Shown: piece by piece, positions 1,634 through 60,207 of the stretch | Layout: each line of letters begins with the position of its first letter | Position numbering within the stretch: the first letter of the stretch is position 1 | Source of the DNA: Octopus vulgaris | Lineage: Eukaryota | DNA: 64,000 nt | Direction: 5' to 3' | NCBI GenBank assembly: GCA_951406725.2 | Contig: OX597814.1 | Coordinates: 184,388,001-184,452,000, forward strand | The notes under the pieces: model-generated | Databases searched by the model: none | The model's input: the letters and a program-made list of their open reading frames with translations, nothing else | Told to the model about the DNA's origin: nothing | Position numbers and translations under genes: made by a program

Positions 1634-2700
1634 CGCAAGGATGTGGAACAAATAAAGTATTATTGGACGCTCAGGAAAGAAGGGAAGAAGGAGGGTTTAA
1701 CGTTTCGAGCGGAGCTCTTCGTCGGAAACATAGGAGAAGGAAAAATCCCGAGAAGGGAAGACAGAGGGAAAAAAAATCGCCTGTGGTACTCACGAGGTCA
1801 CATACTGAAAGACGGAAGTAGTAAGGTAGAGGAATAATGTTTTTTAAAAACAGGAGAGTTTATCAAAGACAGTATGGTAAAGAAAGTGAGAGGGGGAATG
1901 TGTGTGGGTGGGTGCGTGCGGGGAGGTCAGCGTGTGCGCGTGTGTGCGTGTATGTGTGCAATGATGACACGTGTGTGTATGTGTGTGTGCGTGTGTGTGT
2001 GTGTGTGCGTGTGCATATGTGTGTCGACACAACGGCTAGTAGCAGGCCAGTATGTAAGAATTAAGGAGTGGTGTTTTGGGTCCAATCACAGGTCAAAAAC
2101 AAAGAGGTATGTGTGTGTGCGTGTATGTATATGCGTAGAGTTTGGGTGTGTGGCGAGTAACTGTGCTTAACTTAGTGTATGTGTTCGTGTGTGCTTGTAC
2201 GTTCGTGTGTGTGTATATATATGTATGTATAATTGTGTGTGTGTATATATATGTATGTATAATTGTGTGCGTGTATGTATGTGTGTGCGTGTATGTATAG
2301 TGTGCCGTGTGTATGGGATGTATGTGTGGGTTCACTTGTGTGTGTGTGTATGTGCGTGTAGTTGTGTGTGCGTGTATGTGTGCGTTTGTATGTGCGTGTG
2401 TGTAAGCGTATATGGATGTATATGCGTGTATCCGTGGGGTTGTGAGTTGAGCGTGTGTGCGTGCGTATGTGTGCGCATGTTTTTGTGTGCGTATGTATGT
2501 GTGTGTCTGTGCTTATATGTGTGTACGTATGTGTATGTGTGCGTGCGCGTGTAGGTATATATTGTGTGTATGTATATGTGTAGGTGTGTATGTGAATTTG
2601 TGTAGATTATTTTGCACATTACTTAATCATCGTTATATGTTTTATCTTATTTTTAATCTTTCTATAATATGTAATTTTCTAGATGGTATAATTTAATTTT
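1633..2700 (-). mobile_element. Penelope-like (PLE) non-autonomous remnant with hammerhead and degenerate CA-rich body
   Basis: 1633-1785 is the reverse complement of the repeat at 55085-55235. Contains a hammerhead motif and is bounded by (TA)n runs. Confidence 0.6.
1695..1729 (-). ncRNA. Minimal type-I hammerhead ribozyme (variant core)
   Basis: Minus strand reads gttt-CCGACGA-a-gagc(tcc)gctc-GAAA-cgtt-aaac. Stem I is gttt/aaac, stem II is gagc/gctc, stem III is the palindrome aacgtt. Confidence 0.7.
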
Positions 2701-3864: not shown

Positions 3865-3997
3865 TGTGTGTGTGTGTGCGTATATATACCGCGTTTTTTA
3901 ACAAGGCACGTCCATAATAGATCATTTTTCAAAAACTATACCACCATGAATTTCTCTTCACGTTTGATTTATGCTTTGTATATTATATAGATACACA

Positions 3998-4430
3998 CGC
4001 GTAGGAGTGGCTGTGTGGTAAGTAGCTTGCTTACCAGCCACATGGTTCCGGGTTCAGTCCCACTGTGTGGGACCTTGGGAAAGTGTCTTCTACTATAGCC
4101 ACGGGTTGACCAAAGCCTTGTGAGTGGATTTGGACGGAAACTATATATGTATATATATATATATATGTATATATATGTGTGTGTGTGTGTGTGTATGTGT
4201 GTGTGTGTGTGTGTATACGTTTGTGTGTCTGTGTTTGTCCCCCCTCCCCAACATTACTTGGCAACCGATGCTGATGTGTTTACGTCCCTGTAACTTTGCG
4301 GTTCGGCAAAAGATACCGATAAAATAAGTATTACGCTTACAAAGAATAAGTCCTGGGGTGGATTTGCTTGACTAAAGGTGGTGCTCCAGCATGGCCACAG
4401 TCAAATGACTGAAAAGAGTAACAGAGTAAA
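3998..4430 (+). mobile_element. tRNA-derived SINE family A (internal TA/TG microsatellite)
   Basis: A-box-like tggctgtgtgg, B-box-like ggttcagtccc, CORE-like ccttggg.aagtg, internal microsatellite, tail ending in gtaaaaga-type repeats. More than 20 homologous copies or fragments in the window. Confidence 0.9.
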
Positions 4431-6779: not shown

Positions 6780-6782
<3 letters not shown>

Positions 6783-7320
6783 CCCCTTCTTTCTCTCTTC
6801 ATCTGTCCCTTTCTCCTCTCTCTTGTGCTCACGTGACCAGCCAGCGACTACTGCCTTTTCGAATCCAGCAGTCATTGTGGCAACACATATTTGTTTGTTC
6901 TCCGTGGCCTTAAGGCACTCTTCCGTAGCCAGCCCAAAACTTTACTCGTCCTGTCGAAAAGACGCTTGTCCTGACGTCCTGGTTTTGTTATTATTGTTTT
7001 TACGTATTTTGTATTCTTATTCGTGCTATCATTATTGTTTTTACGTATTTTTGTACTTTTATTCGTGTAACATCGTCCGTTTTCCGTCCCTGTGTTGTAT
7101 ACATTCGAGGCTTTCTTCCAAGGAATCTAATGCGCTTGGCTTAGATTTCCCCTGGGGGCTGCCCAGATCGGAGCAATCTCAAGATTAATCAGCCGAAATT
7201 GCGAAGATGATCCTGTTCTTGACTGATGATTGAGGGCTTCGAATGTCCCGTCCGTGTTTTTTGTGTCTTCTAAATGTTTCACGTTCTTGTCCCAGTTTGT
7301 ATATTTTTTTACTTTTACAT
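6780..7320 (+). mobile_element. TA-flanked pyrimidine-rich repeat, probable PLE-related remnant
   Basis: 7085-7310 is homologous to the reverse complements of 31915-32130 and 39410-39600 and to 48005-48127. Inserted between (TA)n runs. Confidence 0.6.
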
Positions 7321-7663: not shown

Positions 7664-8064
7664 CGGCGCAAGAGTGGCTGTGTGGTAAGTAGCTTGCTTA
7701 CCAACCACATGGTTCCGGGTTCAGTTCCACTGCGTGGCACCTTGGGCATGTGTCTTCTACTATAGCCTCGGGCCGACCACTTGTGAGTGGATTTGGTAGA
7801 CGGAAACTGAAAGAAGCCCTTCGTATATATGTATATATATATATATGCGTGTGTGTGTTTGTGTGTCTGTGTTTGTCCCCCTAGAATTGCTTGACAACCG
7901 ATGCTGGTGTGTTTATGTCCCCGTTACCTAGCGGTTCGGCAAAAGAGACCGATAGAATAAGTACTGGGCTTACAAAAGAATGAGTCCCGGGGTCGAGTTT
8001 GCTCGATTAAAAAAGGCGGTGCTCCAGCATAGCCGCAGTCAAATGACTGAAACAAGTAAAAGAG
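7664..8064 (+). mobile_element. SINE family A, full length
   Basis: Complete head-core-microsatellite-tail arrangement. Confidence 0.9.
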
Positions 8065-8397
8065 ACAAAGGACGTACGTGTTTATCTGACAGTTTGAGAG
8101 CTCTAACGCTTTCATAATAATTCGAGCCTGACCTTTTGGTGTCTTTGTTATATGGGTCAATTCTTACTTTGAAATATCCTCCATCGTGACTCGCCTCGAC
8201 GGGATTGTTTTCAATGTAGAGTTCCTCAAGAACTTAACCATAACGTTTTACTCAGATTTTGTTTCTAATTCCATATTGCTCTAACTATACAGAACTCCCC
8301 TGTCATAAATGGCCCTTTTTACTTTAACTTTTAATCAGCCGTACTGCTACGCTGGTGATAACTTTTGCCCTTATTTAAACTTCTGCATATACACATC

Positions 8398-8620
8398 TCT
8401 CTTACTCTTTACTCTTTTACTTGCTTCAGTCATTTGACTTGCGGCCATGCTGGAGCACCGCCTATAGTCGAGCAAATCGACCCCGGGACTTATTCTTTTG
8501 TAAGCCCAGTACTTATTCTATCGGTCTCTTTTGCCGAACCGCTAAGTTACGGCGACGTAAACACACCAGCATCGGTTGTCAAGCAATGCTAGAGGGACAA
8601 ACACAGACACACAAACATAT

Positions 8621-8683
<63 letters not shown>

Positions 8684-8848
8684 TACGACAGGCTTCTTTC
8701 AGTTTCCGTCTACCAAATCCACTCACAAGGCTTTGGTCGGCCCGAGGCTATAGCAGAAGACACTTGCCCAAGACGCCACGCAGTGGGACTGAACCCGGAA
8801 CCATGTGGCTGGTTAGCAAGCTACTTACCACGCAGCCACTCCTGCGCC
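8398..8848 (-). mobile_element. SINE family A, full length
   Basis: Reverse complement, near-identical to the copies at 20645 and 34720. Confidence 0.92.
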
Positions 8849-8949
8849 TGTAACACACAACTATGATATTTCGGGCTGAGTAATCGAAAGAGGTTGTCCA
8901 ATAAGGATATCCATCTATTTTCTCTGCCTAATATTCCTGAGAGAACCAT

Positions 8950-17975: not shown

Positions 17976-19122
17976 AGCCGGCGAGTTGGGTGATCTGTTG
18001 CAACATCGCGAGTCCGCTGCTCTAGCCACTAAGCCATGTGCGTCCACATATAAGAAATATATTTCATATTAACTTATGGTGTTTGGGGACTTTCCGGAGT
18101 CATTTTTGCCGATATGATCAGTTTACATTAATCTATAAAGTTTATAATATCATACTTGGATTGATTTTGCTGAAGGCGTTTGTTGCGTTAGATGAGAAAT
18201 ATTCTCTGGTACATTGAATCATAGCATACAGCAGCAGATATATTTCCCACAAGATTTACTATTTTCACTTCATCAAATTAAATTGAAGTTTTTATAATTA
18301 CACGTTTGTCCAAATATATGATATAAACAATGTATCACAATTGACTTTTATTTTTATTTCGTCAGCTGTAATTTTTTCCTATCCAGCACGGAATTTTGTC
18401 AGTGAACAGGTCGCGGTCTCAAAGCGACGAAAATATTTTGGCAAATTAAATTCAAATGTTGAAGTGAATCTAACGGTTTTTATGTGTTTCTTAAATGGCT
18501 TATAAACACCTTCAACGCTGCAATTGTTTTCGTTCCAGCACACGATCTCAGATCAGGTCACTTGCTATGCAGGTACATCTCCAATAATGATACAAAAAGC
18601 CAGTATTTTGGTGGGAGAAAAACACCTAAAAAAACACATGCATGGGTGCATGGTAAGATTTTCGCTTCCGAACCAATGTCGTATATTCTCATCATCATCA
18701 TCATCGTCGTCGTCGTCGTCATCGTCGTTGTCATCATCATCATCATCATCATCATCATCACCACCACCACCACCGCCACTACCACTACCACCACTACCAC
18801 CACCACCACCACCACCACCACTACCACCACCACCACTATCATCACAATCGTGCCTTTAAACCAATCTGTGAATAATATATTCGTCTCACAGAAGCGTGAT
18901 CAACATATTGAATTAGTTTGATTTCTAGTATTTCTAATAAGCGATCGGGGAAATATCGCGTGAATTAAGAAAATTTCTATTCAGCAATCCTTCGAAATTC
19001 TAGAAATGGCAAGCATCTCTCAAGATTCAATCTATTTTATGAAAAGATGAACATATTTGATAACACCATCTTAGCTACAATTTTAGGAAAAAAAACCCCC
19101 AAAAAATTCAGTTATGTGAACA

Positions 19123-19287
19123 TGCGCAGGAGTGGCTGTGTGGTAAGTAGCTTGCTTAATAACCACATGGTTCCGGGTTCAGTCCCACTGTGTGGCACCT
19201 TGGGCAAGTGTCTTCTACTATAGCCTCGGGCCGACCATAGCCTTGTGAGTGAATTTGGTAGACGGAAACTGAAAGAAGCCCGTCGTA

Positions 19288-19357
<70 letters not shown>

Positions 19358-19592
19358 TGTGCGTGTATATATGTTTGTGTGTCTGTGTTTGTCCCCCACC
19401 TAACATCGCTTGACAACCGATGCCGGTGTGTTTACGTCCCCGTAACCTAGCGGTTCGGCAAGAGAGGCCGATAGAATAAGTACTAGGCTTACAAAGAATA
19501 AGTCCTGGGATCGATTTTCTCGACTAAAGGCGGTGCTCCAGCATGGCCGCAGTCAAATGACTGAAACAAGTAAAAGAGAAAGAGAAAGAGAA
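19123..19592 (+). mobile_element. SINE family A, full length
   Basis: Complete copy. Confidence 0.92.
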
Positions 19593-24195: not shown

Positions 24196-24480
24196 TATTT
24201 GGGCACACGACATCACCAGCTGTGTAATCAACATGAAGTATGAAAACAAACGAGTTAAATACGCAAACAACGAGAGAAAAAATGGAAAACAGGACAAGTA
24301 ACACGGAGAACGACCCTTCATCGGTTTTCGGATGTCTATCTACTCTTCCTTTCGAGCATTCAACAACATTATGAGTCTTCGAAGACAGTTGCTCCAATAA
24401 ATTCCGAAATAAAAGTTTGAATTTATGTAGAGTCAAAGTTGGGAACAAAAACACGAATAAACCGCACGAAAATAAACATG
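24192..24480 (-). mobile_element. TA-flanked repeat with reversed-order hammerhead-like boxes
   Basis: Same layout as 27135-27320, 27430-27598 and 60030-60207. Confidence 0.55.
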
Positions 24481-27098: not shown

Positions 27099-27321
27099 TT
27101 TTATATATATAGCTATAGATATATATACATGCATATATGGGTACAGGACGTCAAAAATATGTGGACAAAATGAGAAACGAGAACATAAAAAACAAAAAAC
27201 GTGGAAAACGAACTTTTTTTTCGAACAACGAAAGAAACAAATAGAGAAACGAGACAGGCAAGATAAAGAACATTCCCTTCATCGGTTATCCTCTGTTCCA
27301 TCTACACCGCGTTTCGAAGAT

Positions 27322-27354
<33 letters not shown>

Positions 27355-27602
27355 TTAATAAATAAAACATATGCATATATATATATACATATATGTACGT
27401 ACCTACCTCTACATGTATATATACACGCATATATGAGTACAGGACACCAAAAAACGTCGAACACAATGAGAAACGAAAACATAGACACAAACACAAGGAA
27501 CTGGACATTTTTCTTAAACAACAACAAAATAGAGTACAGGACAAATAACACAAGGAAAAAACCCCTTCTTCAGTCGCCATGGTTTCATCTACTCTACGGA
27601 GT

Positions 27603-29884: not shown

Positions 29885-30905
29885 AGTCGGCATGTTTTGG
29901 GTCTTCTCGCTTCAGCCATATATAGAAGCTGGCTCCTTTATCTTCCTTATTACTTTTCTCAGCTCTGAGCTCGAGAATGCAAACCTTCTTTTAAATAACA
30001 TCATCATTTTCCTTTCAATGAAGCCTCAAGCCCACACTGCCAGGTGGTAATACTCGACAGTCCATCCCTGTTCTCCTCACTCTTCAATTAATCTCTCATA
30101 CCTCTTCTCCTTCCGTTGTTCTGCATTAGCGATGTTCTCTTCCCATGGCACTGTCAGCTCTATCAAAATTCCAATTTTCCGTTTGTGTTCCATAGGATTA
30201 AGTCAGGTCTTTTTGTTGTTTTTATGAGTAGAAATATTAACAGTCTTTCCAAATCCGCAGCTAGCTCCCAGTATCCCTTCCATCTTTCGTCTGTGTCGTA
30301 TATCTTTTGAAAGCTTGGCCTTATGTCCTTTTCTCTCCGTCTGAAAGTATATTTTTCCGCGCTTTCCACTTTTCGGTATTCTCCCCTATTATATCCCTCG
30401 GTCTTCTCCTTGAGTGCTGCGCTTATGACACCGAGGACTTGATTGGGATGCCATATATATCTGTCTAGAGCTAGCCTGCAGTTTGACAGAACATGTCTCA
30501 CCGTCGCTTTCTCTCCGCATCTACATTCATCAGTTGTTTGTATGTTCCACCGGACTAAATTCGCATGAGAAGGTAAAACGTTGAAGATAGACTTAATCAG
30601 GAAGGATGTTTTTGCTTGTTCCCAAGCCCAAAGTTCCTTCTGCGAGATTCTGCGACTGACTATATATTCCTCCCATCTCAGGCACTGTCCCTGTTGACTA
30701 CATTGCACCAAATGTACAAATTCGCCTTTCTTCTTCCTCCTTTCTCACTTCGAGTACCACTGCCTTTTTCATCTCTTTTACACTGCTCATGCAAAATGGC
30801 TAGTAGTTGTGCAACCCTAGACCGGCTCTTGCTTCTTGTGTCGCTCCGACTATATCGGCCTGCCTTAGCTTTCCGATCGCCCTGTTTACTGCCTCTTACG
30901 CTGTA
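29885..30905 (-). mobile_element. HERO-like non-LTR retrotransposon fragment (zinc knuckle plus restriction-like endonuclease)
   Basis: SFLIKSIFNVLPSHANL, CRCG..HVLSNC, RPDLILW, then IELTVPWEENIANAEQRKEKRY and ASFYIWLKRED. Contains stops and frameshifts. Confidence 0.88.
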
Positions 30906-31914: not shown

Positions 31915-32150
31915 AATGAACGTGAAACACAGGAAGGGACGAACACGGAACACAGACAAAACATTCGAAGCCTTCAATCTTCAGTCAGACACCGAACCAT
32001 CATAGCAAATTTCGGCTGTTCAATTCTGATATTTGCTCCAACTCGGCCAGCCCCAAGAAAAAAAACTAAGCTGTAAGCATTAGATTTCTTGGTAGAAGAC
32101 AGGAATGTGAACGCACAAGACGGATGTAAACACAAGAGACGAAAACGAAA
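31915..32150 (-). mobile_element. Copy of the 7085-7310 repeat family
   Basis: Shares ggctg..cagccgaaa..ctgaagattgaaggcttcgaatg on the minus strand. Confidence 0.65.
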
Positions 32151-32401: not shown

Positions 32402-32847
<446 letters not shown>

Positions 32848-32853
<6 letters not shown>

Positions 32854-33135
32854 AACCATCAAGGTGCTTGAGAAAGTGGTAGTCGGTAGGAGAAAGGACT
32901 GGAGAATAAGCTGGGTGGAGAACTTCGTAGCCAAATACCCTCAACTTCTGGATTGTCCTTAGTGAAGCGTGTGGTCGAGCATTGTCATGAAGGATGACTG
33001 ATCCTCTTCTGTTGACCAGTCTGGGACGGAGGGGTAGCAGTTTTTCATTCATTTTGGCAATTTCATGGCAACATGTTTCTGTAGAAATGGTTTCTCCAGG
33101 TTTTAAGACGTTAAACTCAGTAAAATTCTGTACAA
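32848..33135 (-). mobile_element. mariner transposase DDD-domain fragment
   Basis: LKPGETI...ILHDNARPH...HPAYSPVLSPTDYHFLKHL. Confidence 0.92.
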
Positions 33136-34719
33136 ATTCTTCGTGGTTCAAAACGTTGCTTACTTTTTACTCAACCTGATAGCTGCTGATATACAAAAAA
33201 AAAAAAAAAAAAGAAAAAGAAAAAAAACGAAAAAAGGAAAAAAAATCAACGTGGCTGAGGTAGGAAAACTTGATCATTTCGTCTTTTGTATATTGCCAAC
33301 TAAACTGTCTGATATGTCCACTAGGTTTTTGTATTTTCTTTTTTCTAAGATAGTGGTGAGTAATATAAAGAAGACTGACACAAGGCTATTCAATCAGGGC
33401 TGACGAGGGACTGAACAACAATAATAACTGAATGCTGCAGTTATATTTGCATTCAATAAAATCGTCAATAGTCAATAGACAGCTCGGCATCATTTAACTA
33501 CCAGGATATGGATCTCTATTTGTAATGATGAACCTTACAAAAAAAAAAAAAAAAAAAAAAATCTAGCGAAATTAATCCTTATATTTAGGTTTCTTATATT
33601 GTTTTTACTTTTCGACATTTGGTCGATATATTATCGGATTAAAAAAAGTTGCTCATTCTATATCTCTCTCACTCCTCTCTCTCTCTCACTTTCTCTCTCT
33701 CACTCTCTCTTTCCCGAGATATTTCTCGCGGCGCCGGGTTAGATGCGAATATATTGCTTAGACGGCTGATGATAATTCATTCAATGTATAAGGGAAACAG
33801 CTGGCGTAGATGTCTTTCTGAATGACATGAGCGGATTTACTGAAAATAAAAAAAAAGAAAGGACGAGAATTTTTAAAAACAAAAAAACAAAGAATTCCTA
33901 AATATATATATATATAAAAAAAAAACTAAGAGAAAATAATGAATTCAGAGAAAATAATATCAAACTCTTAGCATCTGTGCTTCACTTTCTGTGCAGAAAT
34001 ATATACGCAAAACAGTATACAAGCACGAATCAAAATGCGAGTCATACTAGGTCAGATTACTTGCTTGAAATAGCAGCTAGATCTTTCTACGATGATACAC
34101 AATCGCTCTAAATTAGAAAGGAGATATGTAGGAAATGTGGTTCTAGACATAGAAAAACCACCTCTGTGTGTATATATGTACATATGTATATGCGTGTGTA
34201 TGGAGAGAGTGTACAATTTGTTGAAAAATCCAGGGGAATAATTACAAGGTAGGTAAAATGTTGTTTAAGTGTCCCAGGATTTAATTCAGGGATAGTAAGT
34301 CGTATTTAGTAGAAAATAGGAAAATTGAATAACCTAATAATAATTTCTGCAAATTTTCTTTTTATTTTTTCTTCCATCTTACTTCCCATAATTTCCACCC
34401 TCTCCCCGTCTTTCCTTTTTTTTAATGAATTTTTTTTAATATTTACAATTTGGCCGTTTCTCTCCCCCTACTTCTCTCTCTTTTACTTTGGTTTATCCTC
34501 CCTTTCTTTCCCCCTCCCTGTCATTCTATACATCTCTTCTCACACTCTCTGGTTTGTCTCGATAACGTCATTTCAAATTCCTAGCGTCTACTGTTCGTAT
34601 GTAAGCATTTTGTGAAGGAACAACAATGTGTATATATGCTTAAGTACGTGTGTATATGTGTATACAATTATGTGTTTGGGTCTATCGATGTTTTGAGATA
34701 TGTATGCTCTTGTGTATAC

Positions 34720-34949
34720 TCTTACTCTTTTTACTCTTTTATTTGTTTCAGTCATTTGACTGCGGCCATGCTGGAGCACCGCCTTTAGTCGAGCAAATCG
34801 ACCCCGGGACTTATTCATTGTAAGCCTAGTACTTATTCTATCGGTCTCTTTTTGCCGAACCGCTAAGTGACGGGGACGTAAGCACACCAGCATCGGTTGT
34901 CAAGCGATGTTGGGGGGACAAACACAGACACACAAGCACATACACATAC

Positions 34950-34995
<46 letters not shown>

Positions 34996-35153
34996 GACAA
35001 GCTTCTTTCAGTTTCCGTCTACCAAATCCACTCACAAGGCTTTGGTCGGCCCGGGGCTATAGCAGAAGACACTTGCCCAAGATGCCGCGCAGTGGGACTG
35101 AACCCGGAACCATGTGGCTGGTTAGCAAGCTACTTACCACACAGCCACTCCTG
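34720..35153 (-). mobile_element. SINE family A, full length
   Basis: Complete copy. Confidence 0.92.
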
Positions 35154-35179
35154 CCGTATGTATACGTTCCTTTCTGTAT

Positions 35180-36987: not shown

Positions 36988-37286
36988 AACACACATATAT
37001 ACGACAGGCTTCTTTCAGTTTCAGTCTACCAAATCCACTTTGGTCGGCCCGAGGCTATAGTAGAAGACCCAAAGTGCCACGCAGTGGGTCTGAACCCGGA
37101 ACCATGTGGTGGGTAAGTTGCTACTTACTACACAGCCAGTCCCATATATATATGGGACTGGCTGTGTAGTACGTAGCTTATATATATAAGAGTAATCACA
37201 TAATGCGAAACAAGGTGGTAAAAATAGTACTCGAATACCAGAGGGAGAGTAATATGCTTTATTAAAATGCAGCAAAAATATCACAA

Positions 37287-37330
37287 AAAATGTTACTCAG
37301 AGTTTCACGTTCCCGTTCGTCAGACAGTTT
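37287..37330 (-). ncRNA. Type-I hammerhead ribozyme, canonical core
   Basis: aaactgt-CTGACGA-acg(ggaa)cgt-GAAA-ctc(t)gaGTA-acatttt. Confidence 0.8.
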
Positions 37331-37348
37331 AGTGCAGAATTCTAAACA

Positions 37349-37392
37349 AAACTATCCGACGAACGGGAACGTGAAACTCTGAGTAACAGTTT
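37349..37392 (+). ncRNA. Type-I hammerhead ribozyme, U4C variant
   Basis: aaactat-CCGACGA-acg(ggaa)cgt-GAAA-ctc(t)gaGTA-acagttt. Confidence 0.75.
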
Positions 37393-37422
37393 TTGTGATA
37401 TTTTTGTTGCATTTTAATAAAG

Positions 37423-39409: not shown

Positions 39410-39600
39410 TATGTAGAAAAATACAACATGGACAAGAACGTATAACTCTTAGAAGACGACACAATAAACACGGACAGGACATTCGAAACCCTCAGTCTTC
39501 AGTCAAGAACCGGATCATCGTAGTAATTTCGGCTGATTAATCTTGAGATTACTAGATCACGGCCAGCCCTCCAAGAAAAACCAAGCAACGAGCATTAGAA
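39410..39600 (-). mobile_element. Copy of the 7085-7310 repeat family
   Basis: Minus strand ggctg..ctcaagattaatcagccgaaa..ctgaagactgagggtttcgaatgtcc. Confidence 0.65.
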
Positions 39601-47076: not shown

Positions 47077-48124
47077 TTTACTAGTATTGATGTTGTTGTT
47101 GCTGTTGTTTGTAAGGAAAAGGATGAACTCTATGAGTTTATCAGTAACAACTTCACGTATAAGGCCCGCTTGTGTATTGGTTGGCATTTATATGTGTATG
47201 TATAGACGAATGTGTGTATACGAGTGCAGTATGCATTTATGCTTGCATATATGTGCGTGTTCTTGTATGTGTTTGCATATGTAGGCGCACTCGTGTCGAA
47301 GTGCATGTCTGTTCGTGACCCTTCGCCGCCATAAAAAAGAAAAAAAAACTCAGCAAAAATAACAAGGCAAATCAATGCGTCAATCGGACAGAAATCTAAA
47401 GATATTAACAAAGAAGCACTTACCGCCTTGCCAAATAAAACAGAGACATGGGCTGGATTGATTACACTATTGAACAATCAAATTAGTGGTGCGTAGTAAG
47501 TATACTATTTACTGAGAACACGATGAATAACTTCTCAACAGTATTATATTATTGTACAAGTTTGTTTGTGACGGTGGGGGTTGGAACAGTATCCATAGCA
47601 TATTGAAAAGGAAGTGAAATGCTTGAGTGGTCACTGCATTCATTGGATTACCTTCGTAAAGATATCTTGAGTTCAAATCTAGGCTAATGCGTTTTTATTG
47701 TGTATTTTGAAAAAAATAAAATAAAATAAGATATTCTTCGTTTTACAGTTCATCTAACAGTCTGAATTAGGCAACATATTATCAGAGAATATTACCTGAG
47801 AGGGACTTGCGTACAGGCCAGGAGGAGTGTGTGGTAAGAGGTTTATTTCCCAACCACACACACAGTCCGGGACTTAGGTCTACTGTGTGGCACTTTGGGC
47901 AAGTGTCTTCTTCTATAAAGCGTTGTGAGAGAGAGTTGGTTGACTTAAACGCAAAGAAGCCTGTCGCTGATACGCACGGACACACACACATACACACACA
48001 TGTATAATCAGCCGAAATTGCGAAGATAATCTGCTACTTGACTCAGGAAAGAAAACTTCGAATCACCCGTCCTTGTTTTCTTTGTATCGCGCCTATCTAG
48101 ATGTTTTGCGTTCTTGTTCCATTT

Positions 48125-48196
<72 letters not shown>

Positions 48197-55084: not shown

Positions 55085-55275
55085 TGGCGATTTTTTTCCC
55101 TCTGTCTTCCCTTCTCTGCATCTTTCTTTTTCCTATGTTCCTGATGAAGAGCTCCGCTCGAAACGTAAAACCCTCCTTCTTCCCTTCCTTCCTGAGCGTC
55201 CAATAATACTATATTTGTTCCACCTCCTCGCGTTGTTGTGTTTTCTCTTTGTGTTTTCATGTTTGGATTAACTTT
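55085..55275 (+). mobile_element. PLE-like remnant with hammerhead
   Basis: Homologous to the reverse complement of 1633-1785. Ends in (TA)n. Confidence 0.7.
55137..55171 (+). ncRNA. Minimal type-I hammerhead ribozyme, canonical core
   Basis: gttc-CTGATGA-a-gagc(tcc)gctc-GAAA-cGTA-aaac. Confidence 0.78.
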
Positions 55276-60029: not shown

Positions 60030-60207
60030 TATATGTGGGCACAAGACGTCACGAAACGTAAACAACAAAATATTCGAAGTCCGAGGACATGGAATAAGAA
60101 CATTTTTTGGCGAACAACGAAAAAAAAGAAATGGAAAATAAGACAAACAACACAAAGAACGATCCTTCATCAGTTGTCTACTGTTTTTCTAATCAATATT
60201 TCGAGCA
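60030..60207 (-). mobile_element. TA-flanked repeat with reversed-order hammerhead-like boxes
   Basis: Minus strand gctc-GAAA-tattgatTA-16 nt-CTGATGAagg. Confidence 0.55.

Follow-up and report, generated by a model that had tools for sequence, protein, structure and literature searches.

A motif carried by repeats of the Octopus vulgaris genome is likely to be a single-molecule hammerhead-like ribozyme with a split core, predicted to cut retroelement RNA after C17 (7178/7179 in the copy described here). On the whole we also lean towards the wider reading, that it is an active natural hammerhead with a four-strand core, a backbone open at A9/G10.1 and a kinked fourth helix as a clamp. It would then lie outside the six permutations thought possible, would be the first ribozyme of a non-circular permutation from animal genomes, in tens of thousands of copies here, and would represent a ribozyme that has gone unnoticed in part of the Naiad clade, whose members range from cnidarians to cephalopods. 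The positions below refer to the window, the whole stretch of 64,000 nucleotides of contig OX597814.1 that was analysed, which is repeat-rich, non-coding animal DNA from a genome of 2.8 Gb.

The strands of the motif follow the order II(5')-X(5')-III-UH-I(3')-linker-II(3')-GAAA-III-X(3')-I(5')-CUGANGA, and the parts of one copy are listed in Table 1. The cleavage block (a UC or UA triplet and the strands that complete stems I and III) lies upstream of GAAA, giving the block order site, GAAA, CUGANGA, which is that of type SGC, and every strand finds its pairing partner inside ~75 nt of one monomer. A fourth helix, X, formed by the strand after the stem II 5' strand and the strand before the stem I 5' strand, would connect stems I and II at their distal ends. 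Since the 5' strand of stem II stands upstream, the backbone is interrupted between A9 and G10.1.

The first-pass annotation of the window had described GAAA at 24-26 nt before CYGANGA in several TA-flanked repeats, and had proposed a permuted hammerhead completed in tandem or circular RNA, with no convincing stem I in cis. The permuted hammerhead in Penelope-like repeats is upheld here; stem I is present (7179-7184 with 7217-7222), and completion only in tandem or circular RNA is unnecessary, as the three core stems and UH are all present in one monomer. The six full copies and the truncated copy at 27562-27598 were all found again at their places in the window, of which those at 27279, 60167 and 27567 are not intact, being truncated past the predicted cut and without the cleavage block. 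The repeats called otherwise dissimilar turn out not to be so within two groups, A (7195, 31978, 39496) and B (24318, 27279, 60167, 27567). The stems ggctg/cagcc and gagca/tgctc are real, and the varying stem that GAAA closes does covary among families; the suggested pairing of an upstream tttc with GAAA is not kept in the family consensuses.

Table 1. Parts of the motif at 7195 and further copies in the window.
Feature	Positions	Strand	Remarks
5'-truncated copy of repeat family A1	6780..7317	+	between (TA)n tracts; ends approximate; full monomer ~723 bp, non-coding
Stem II 5' strand, first base the proposed G10.1	7157..7161	+	upstream of every other core part
Helix X (bridging) 5' strand	7162-7169	+	
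GGA strand, predicted kink-turn	7170-7172	+	kink-turn pattern from general background
Stem III strand, last base U16.1 = 7177; C17 = 7178	7173..7178	+	
Predicted cut	between 7178 and 7179	+	by analogy with hammerheads
Stem I 3' strand	7179-7184	+	
Linker, 5 nt	7185-7189	+	
Block G: stem II 3' strand, C11.1 = 7194	7190-7194	+	
Block G: G12-A13-A14-A15.1	7195-7198	+	
Block G: stem III strand	7198-7202	+	
Predicted kink-turn: 3-nt bulge and GAU	7203-7208	+	
Helix X 3' strand	7209-7216	+	one base unlike the rest of the family in this A1 copy
Stem I 5' strand	7217-7222	+	
Core C3-A9 = CUGAUGA	7223-7229	+	
Intact motif, young family A2	31978..32052	-	H17 = A at 32030; monomer ~715 bp
A-group copy, compensatory changes in stem III	39496..39568	-	H17 = C at 39547; kink-turn strand decayed
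Decayed family B1 copy	24318..24394	-	stems I and III broken, U4C; B1 consensus intact
Family B2 copy	27279..27322	-	starts ~7-11 nt past predicted cut
B-group copy	60167..60207	-	starts ~7-10 nt past predicted cut
B-group (B3-like) copy	27567..27599	-	starts ~19-24 nt past predicted cut; without GAAA
Further A-group copy, absent from the first-pass annotation	48005..48127	+	starts 7 nt past predicted cut; core decayed

A kink-turn consists of a 3-nt bulge and then tandem G-A and A-G pairs between two helices. Helix X, which has ~6-9 bp of differing sequence in each consensus (seen by eye), runs on into stem III by way of an internal loop, and in A1, A2, A4, A5 and N this loop reads as a predicted kink-turn in clean register, with a 3-nt bulge and then GAU opposite NGA. 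In B1-B4 the loop is longer and irregular in that register, and the register is absent from two cnidarian Naiads. A direct link between such a helix and stem III was found hard to fit to the crystal structure in type SGC (Eckert et al., PMC10085705), and a sharp kink would be one way to accommodate it.

Nested folding programs are unable to represent the predicted pseudoknotted fold; for A1 they favour a rod in which the cut site is sequestered, and the z values, 0.1 to -1.3, are unremarkable. At 7170-7243 (+) the bases 3' of the A-group core have possible partners in the kink-turn/stem III strand, giving an alternative rod; this pairing is not significant across families but could slow cleavage in family A. 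A conserved downstream "off-switch" strand, as seen in the A1 fold, was rejected as a general feature because cognate pairing beat shuffled tails in only two of nine versions (4 and 23 of 500 shuffled tails) and was no better than non-cognate pairing.

Families and covariation of the helices

The pattern GAAA-N24..26-CYGANGA has 10 matches in the window, six of which are the copies reported before; the other four (14885+, 53565+, 60053+, 9102-) lie outside the motif-bearing repeats and are chance-like. The box motif itself is real, as the first-pass annotation had it: the stricter CYGAWGA form has eight matches in the window, while 100 local dinucleotide shuffles averaged 0.61 and never exceeded 3. 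A strict descriptor of the four strands matched three times in the window and twice in 400 kb of random genome, and the same 464 kb gave one match in 10 shuffles. In 800 kb of random genome it matched three times, as compared with none in 5 shuffles; one of these matches (L187) has family support, and the other two (L180, L336), with short or wobble-rich stems and no family, are probable false positives. The same 800 kb held 10 family copies with core sequence, from which simple arithmetic, with wide error, gives ~35,000 copies in the genome. Among the best 150 of 282 Rfam matches in the window no hammerhead family occurs; these are of miRNA type only, microsatellite-driven and below their cut-offs. 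A GC-rich descriptor match with the same four-strand wiring, with stems of 7, 6 and 4 bp, was observed on the minus strand of another locus (L059, ~314-397 of the reverse complement); it is unrelated to families A, B and N and probably represents a further family.

Genome searches gave 40-43 scored matches per query, and first-look candidates numbered 3394 (A1), 3732 (B1), 3010 (B2), 2092 (A2) and 1239 (N), which are not copy numbers. Consensuses of 30 loci each keep the boxes and restore all four helices, even where the window copy is decayed. The 181 unique full-core copies fell into 16 clusters, and the A2 copies are 99-100% identical. Nine versions were compared: six are family consensuses, B4 is a consensus of two copies, and A4 and B3 are represented by one copy each. 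A MAFFT alignment of ten versions put the stems out of register and was used neither for pair counting nor for a covariance model.

Covariation, anticipated by the first-pass annotation for a structured RNA, is found in the core stems: stems I, II and III each hold 44 of 45 Watson-Crick pairs across the nine versions, in which stem II occurs in 5 distinct sequence versions and stems III and I in 7 each. Swapping strands between versions halved the pair count, with P values (2e-4 for II, 2e-5 for III, 1e-5 for I) that are optimistic because the versions form about three related groups and strands were chosen by best pairing, and also because stem II is mis-parsed in B3 (one decayed copy) and stem I is broken in B4 (two copies). 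The core CUGANGA, GAAA and UH (H not G) are present in all nine versions, H17 being C or A throughout. The pairs G10.1-C11.1 and A15.1-U16.1 are invariant, and G12, G8, C3 and a non-G at 17 are likewise kept in every version despite the turnover of the stems. Stems I, II and III abut the core when the stem II 5' strand is taken from upstream.

Carrier repeats and Naiad elements

In the copies that carry the motif the 3' end is fixed, ~130 nt past the site, and the 5' end varies; they are flanked by (TA)n, and inverted pieces of the 5' part occur. One locus (L031) contains five A1 monomers, head to tail and spaced ~724 bp apart, and A2 monomers of ~715 bp also occur in tandem pairs. A fixed 3' end, 5' truncation, tandem and inverted copies and microsatellite targets are traits of Penelope-like elements or non-LTR retrozymes, and tandem and inverted 5' pieces are described as typical of Penelope-like elements (PMC8557442). 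No long ORF was found in the A1 and A2 monomers, where the longest have 67 and 150 codons and both run on the opposite strand, which speaks against the coding remnant that the first-pass annotation had allowed for.

Naiads are (TA)n-targeting Penelope-like elements described as lacking a canonical hammerhead, and no fold for them is proposed in the accessible text of Craig et al. (2021, PMC8557442), where the labels "HHR_core" and "HHR_half_core" are given to elements that misfit the descriptors, Naiad_Ovul among them. By eye, and among those of the 54 published Naiad consensuses that were read, the same four-helix wiring is present at the 3' end, on the ORF strand, of Naiad_Obim and Naiad_Ovul, and also in the records preceding Naiad-4_Chem and Naiad_Plae, which by list order are Naiad-3_Chem and Naiad-2_Movir. 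The Naiad motif stands ~1 kb behind the stop codon. Family N of the octopus genome is the 3' end of a Naiad_Ovul-type element.

The Naiad clade is marked by an ORF with GIY-YIG at its N-terminus and reverse transcriptase at its C-terminus. The linkage to Penelope ORFs raised by the first-pass annotation is probable for family N: the putative end of a Naiad ORF is followed by the motif on the same strand in two of 12 loci fetched for this purpose (L380, L381). Their Naiad identity rests on a by-eye match to published Naiad DNA, because the ORF fragments were not recognised by Pfam; BLASTP of the family N ORF fragment gave a weak match to a Neptune ORF (E 0.013). For families A and B no linked ORF was found, nor any similarity to the Naiad (N) 3' UTR at E < 0.001. 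A GIY-YIG search for the mobilising element, in which 150 of 6136 candidates were scored and 20 regions read, found intact Penelope-like ORFs that were 781-aa Neptune-type (RT, then GIY-YIG), and the motif was in none of the 20 regions with Penelope-like ORFs. Many intact 781-aa ORFs belong to a young Neptune-type family (L192-L197, L199, L210), in whose 3' UTR the descriptors found neither kind of hammerhead. In the nematode and arthropod Naiad consensuses seen in the supplement of PMC8557442, cores either have CUGANGA first, with long-range stems, or have a C run before the core, and these elements may hold more non-standard hammerhead layouts.

Other repeats were observed in the window. A very abundant SINE-like repeat of ~440 bp with an internal microsatellite makes up a large share of it (3990-4430, 7665-8065, 8400-8850, 19120-19590, 34720-35160 and others). 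Long inverted-repeat (hairpin) elements at 37260-37419, in the 27680 region and in a further locus (L196) have a sub-threshold Rfam match to MIR6140 and a CYGANGA string in each arm, and are likely MITE-like repeats. An open frame at 32810-33166 (-) has an HDNARPH motif, which we take to be a mariner transposase hallmark, here probably in a remnant. A 193-codon open frame at 30166-30744 (-) has a CxC...HxxxxC knuckle, presumably of the kind found in the C-terminal part of restriction-like-endonuclease non-LTR retrotransposons.

Predicted function and alternative readings

In the proposed ribozyme, helices III and X would make up a single hairpin with its loop paired to the sequence on either side, a double pseudoknot. 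A kink-turn between III and X, as predicted in the A and N families, would bend helix X back so that it clamps stems I and II at their distal ends, and helix X thus kinked may replace the usual contact between loops I and II and compensate for the break between A9 and G10.1. The chemistry of cleavage would be that of standard hammerheads, with G12 as the base and the 2'-OH of G8 as the acid (PMC11300833). Cutting of tandem or read-through transcripts would yield templates of unit length, to be copied by a Penelope-like (Naiad-type) reverse transcriptase, and this would account for the many insertions with a start just past the cut; release of unit templates in this way has been proposed for other Penelope-like hammerheads (PMC4209133).

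The positions of 5' ends relative to the predicted cut were counted in 90 tail-anchored copies of A1, A2 and B1, retrieved with queries that held only sequence well downstream of the site; the set takes in the window's own three copies and some tandem neighbours, and 30 B2 copies were left out because their query carried TA flank. Thirteen 5' ends fall in -5..+10 (1221 nt at risk, 1.06% per nt) and 8 in +11..+21 (0.85% per nt), compared with 7 in -37..-6 (2088 nt at risk, 0.34% per nt) and 16 in -101..-6 (0.28% per nt). The interval -5..+10 differs from these upstream intervals with P = 0.010 and P = 0.0006, respectively. Among 68 bystander copies, 13 of the 52 at risk start in -5..+21, two of 54 in +22..+49 and one of 39 in -32..-6. 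This clustering fits templates that begin at the cut. There is no sharp peak at the cut itself, and microhomology to (TA)n targets may contribute, since nine of the 13 bystander ends lie at +7..+9 in the A/U-rich linker.

The spread of ends over -5..+21, densest at +7..+9, would also suit a hammerhead-derived structure that is non-catalytic or very slow and is kept as a protein-binding or reverse-transcription signal, the 5' clustering then coming from polymerase stalling or TA microhomology. The competing nested folds agree with such a structure, as does the report that in vitro the ribozyme of a Poseidon element, the one Penelope-like element so tested, needed protein and that its cleavage was dispensable for insertion (PMC11167929). 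It is nevertheless an unlikely explanation: the residues named above (G12, G8, C3, the A15.1-U16.1 pair and the non-G at 17) are constant in nine versions while the stems turn over, and few 5' ends fall in +22..+49, where most helices need unwinding.

A cleaving hammerhead could also be of the ordinary type SGC, with G10.1, or the whole of stem II, directly 3' of CUGANGA and the upstream strand accessory or competing. A G does occur at most 3 nt past A9 in all nine versions of the octopus genome. If a 1-nt insert is allowed, B1 and B4 have four downstream pairs available, two of them wobble; with 5 nt inserted, four Watson-Crick pairs are open to A1, A2 and A4 but not to A5. A relaxed downstream descriptor found 18 B1/B2 copies in 1.16 Mb, with a wobble-rich stem II of 3-4 bp, and the pseudoknot hammerhead has a natural stem II of one pair (PMC11300833). 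Yet the upstream strand forms 5-6 Watson-Crick pairs in eight of nine versions, covaries, and always has G as its first base, opposite C11.1, whereas a downstream strand starting 0-2 nt past A9 reaches at most two Watson-Crick pairs in any of the nine versions (only one pair in A5 and two in N). By eye, two cnidarian Naiads have no downstream partner. By this measure none of the nine versions qualifies as type SGC with an intact block C (stem II 5' strand 0-2 nt past CUGANGA), and a true-SGC descriptor with at least four stem II pairs had no match in either the window or the 800 kb of random genome. We therefore regard this reading as quite improbable.

Completion of the core only between two tandem copies, or in circular RNA, is very improbable. 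Tandem monomers exist (the five in one A1 array, and the A2 pairs), minimal Penelope hammerheads have been proposed to act as dimers (PMC4209133), and the knotted topology might be easier to reach if copies exchanged strands. One monomer, however, supplies all strand partners, as described above, and stem III, with 5-7 bp, is not palindromic. An accidental spacing of two short boxes, or a relic of coding sequence, would account for the four unrelated raw matches in the window and is refuted by the family consensuses and their covariation, by the shuffle controls, by the lack of long ORFs in A1 and A2 and by the position of the Naiad motif behind the stop codon.

Relation to known hammerheads

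GAAA before CUGANGA is already known from type II, SGC and GCS hammerheads; what is unusual in the split-core motif is the upstream 5' strand of stem II. The motif falls outside types I, II and III (CGS, GSC, SCG), the order S-G-C not being that of a circularly permuted nested three-way junction. Type II hammerheads also have GAAA before CUGANGA (Perreault et al. 2011, PMC3088659), but there the site lies between the two boxes, with nested hairpins, and in the octopus motif it lies upstream of GAAA. A type II reading of the octopus motif was rejected, as the 24-26 nt spacer accommodates neither a stem III nor a stem I hairpin, and a second degenerate type I core from CUGANGA onward was rejected because the consensuses lack a following GAAA.

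The closest known system is formed by the type-SGC hammerheads (HRIMA-1 and variants), non-circular permutations with proven cleavage that come from metatranscriptomes only, as far as the main text of Eckert et al. (2023, PMC10085705) goes. The octopus motif shares with them the order site-GAAA-CUGANGA, all core bases, a short linker between stems I and II, a pseudoknotted core and an extra helix, predicted in the octopus motif, between the distal ends of stems I and II; in type SGC this helix is sometimes connected directly to stem III. In that work the 5' strand of stem II is assumed always to follow CUGANGA within 1-2 bases, as an uninterruptible block (PMC10085705). The octopus motif, with this strand at its 5' end, corresponds to the SGC circle opened at A9/G10.1. 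None of the SGC hammerheads described in that text is from the genome of a known organism, whereas here the motif belongs to a high-copy animal retroelement; cleavage is proven there, and the octopus motif is known from its sequence.

Rebuilding of helix II from long-range pairing is shared with the pseudoknot hammerhead (Zhan et al. 2024, PMC11300833), in which A9-G12 and G10.1-C11.1 make up the short stem of a loop. Because the link from A9 to G10.1 is kept there, it sets no precedent for the break. The split-core wiring is not described in the literature searched (largely papers open without subscription, and PMC10085705 apart from its supplements). If true, it breaks the stated rule that hammerheads consist of three uninterruptible blocks in six orders, and current descriptors would therefore miss a whole class. 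It would also answer why Naiads seemed to be without hammerheads, and would add to the known ribozymes a compact, pseudoknotted scaffold whose free ends lie at the core, likely a natural case of a hammerhead organised by a kink-turn.

With Naiads (PMC8557442) the octopus repeats share the (TA)n insertion bias, 5' truncation, and tandem and inverted copies; they differ in that no ORF link was found for the window families A and B, and some nematode and arthropod Naiads are laid out otherwise in the consensuses seen. Location in terminal repeats and tandem non-coding monomers are shared with the minimal or canonical type I hammerheads of Penelope pseudo-LTRs and of non-LTR retrozymes, where an extra base after A9 is also common (PMC4209133; bioRxiv 10.64898/2026.07.22.740005). 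The window holds both kinds of hammerhead, with canonical minimal type I copies at 55141-55167 (+) and ~1699-1725 (-), which consist of CUGANGA, an extra A, a 3-bp stem II and GAAACGUH and belong to a separate TA-flanked repeat family; the copy at 1719 (-) carries U4C. Penelope-type type I hammerheads run from CUGANGA through the stem II hairpin to GAAA and UH; their stem III is weak, and they are believed to depend on dimers (PMC4209133; bioRxiv 10.64898/2026.07.22.740005). The octopus motif differs from them in its four long-range helices and its full stem III.
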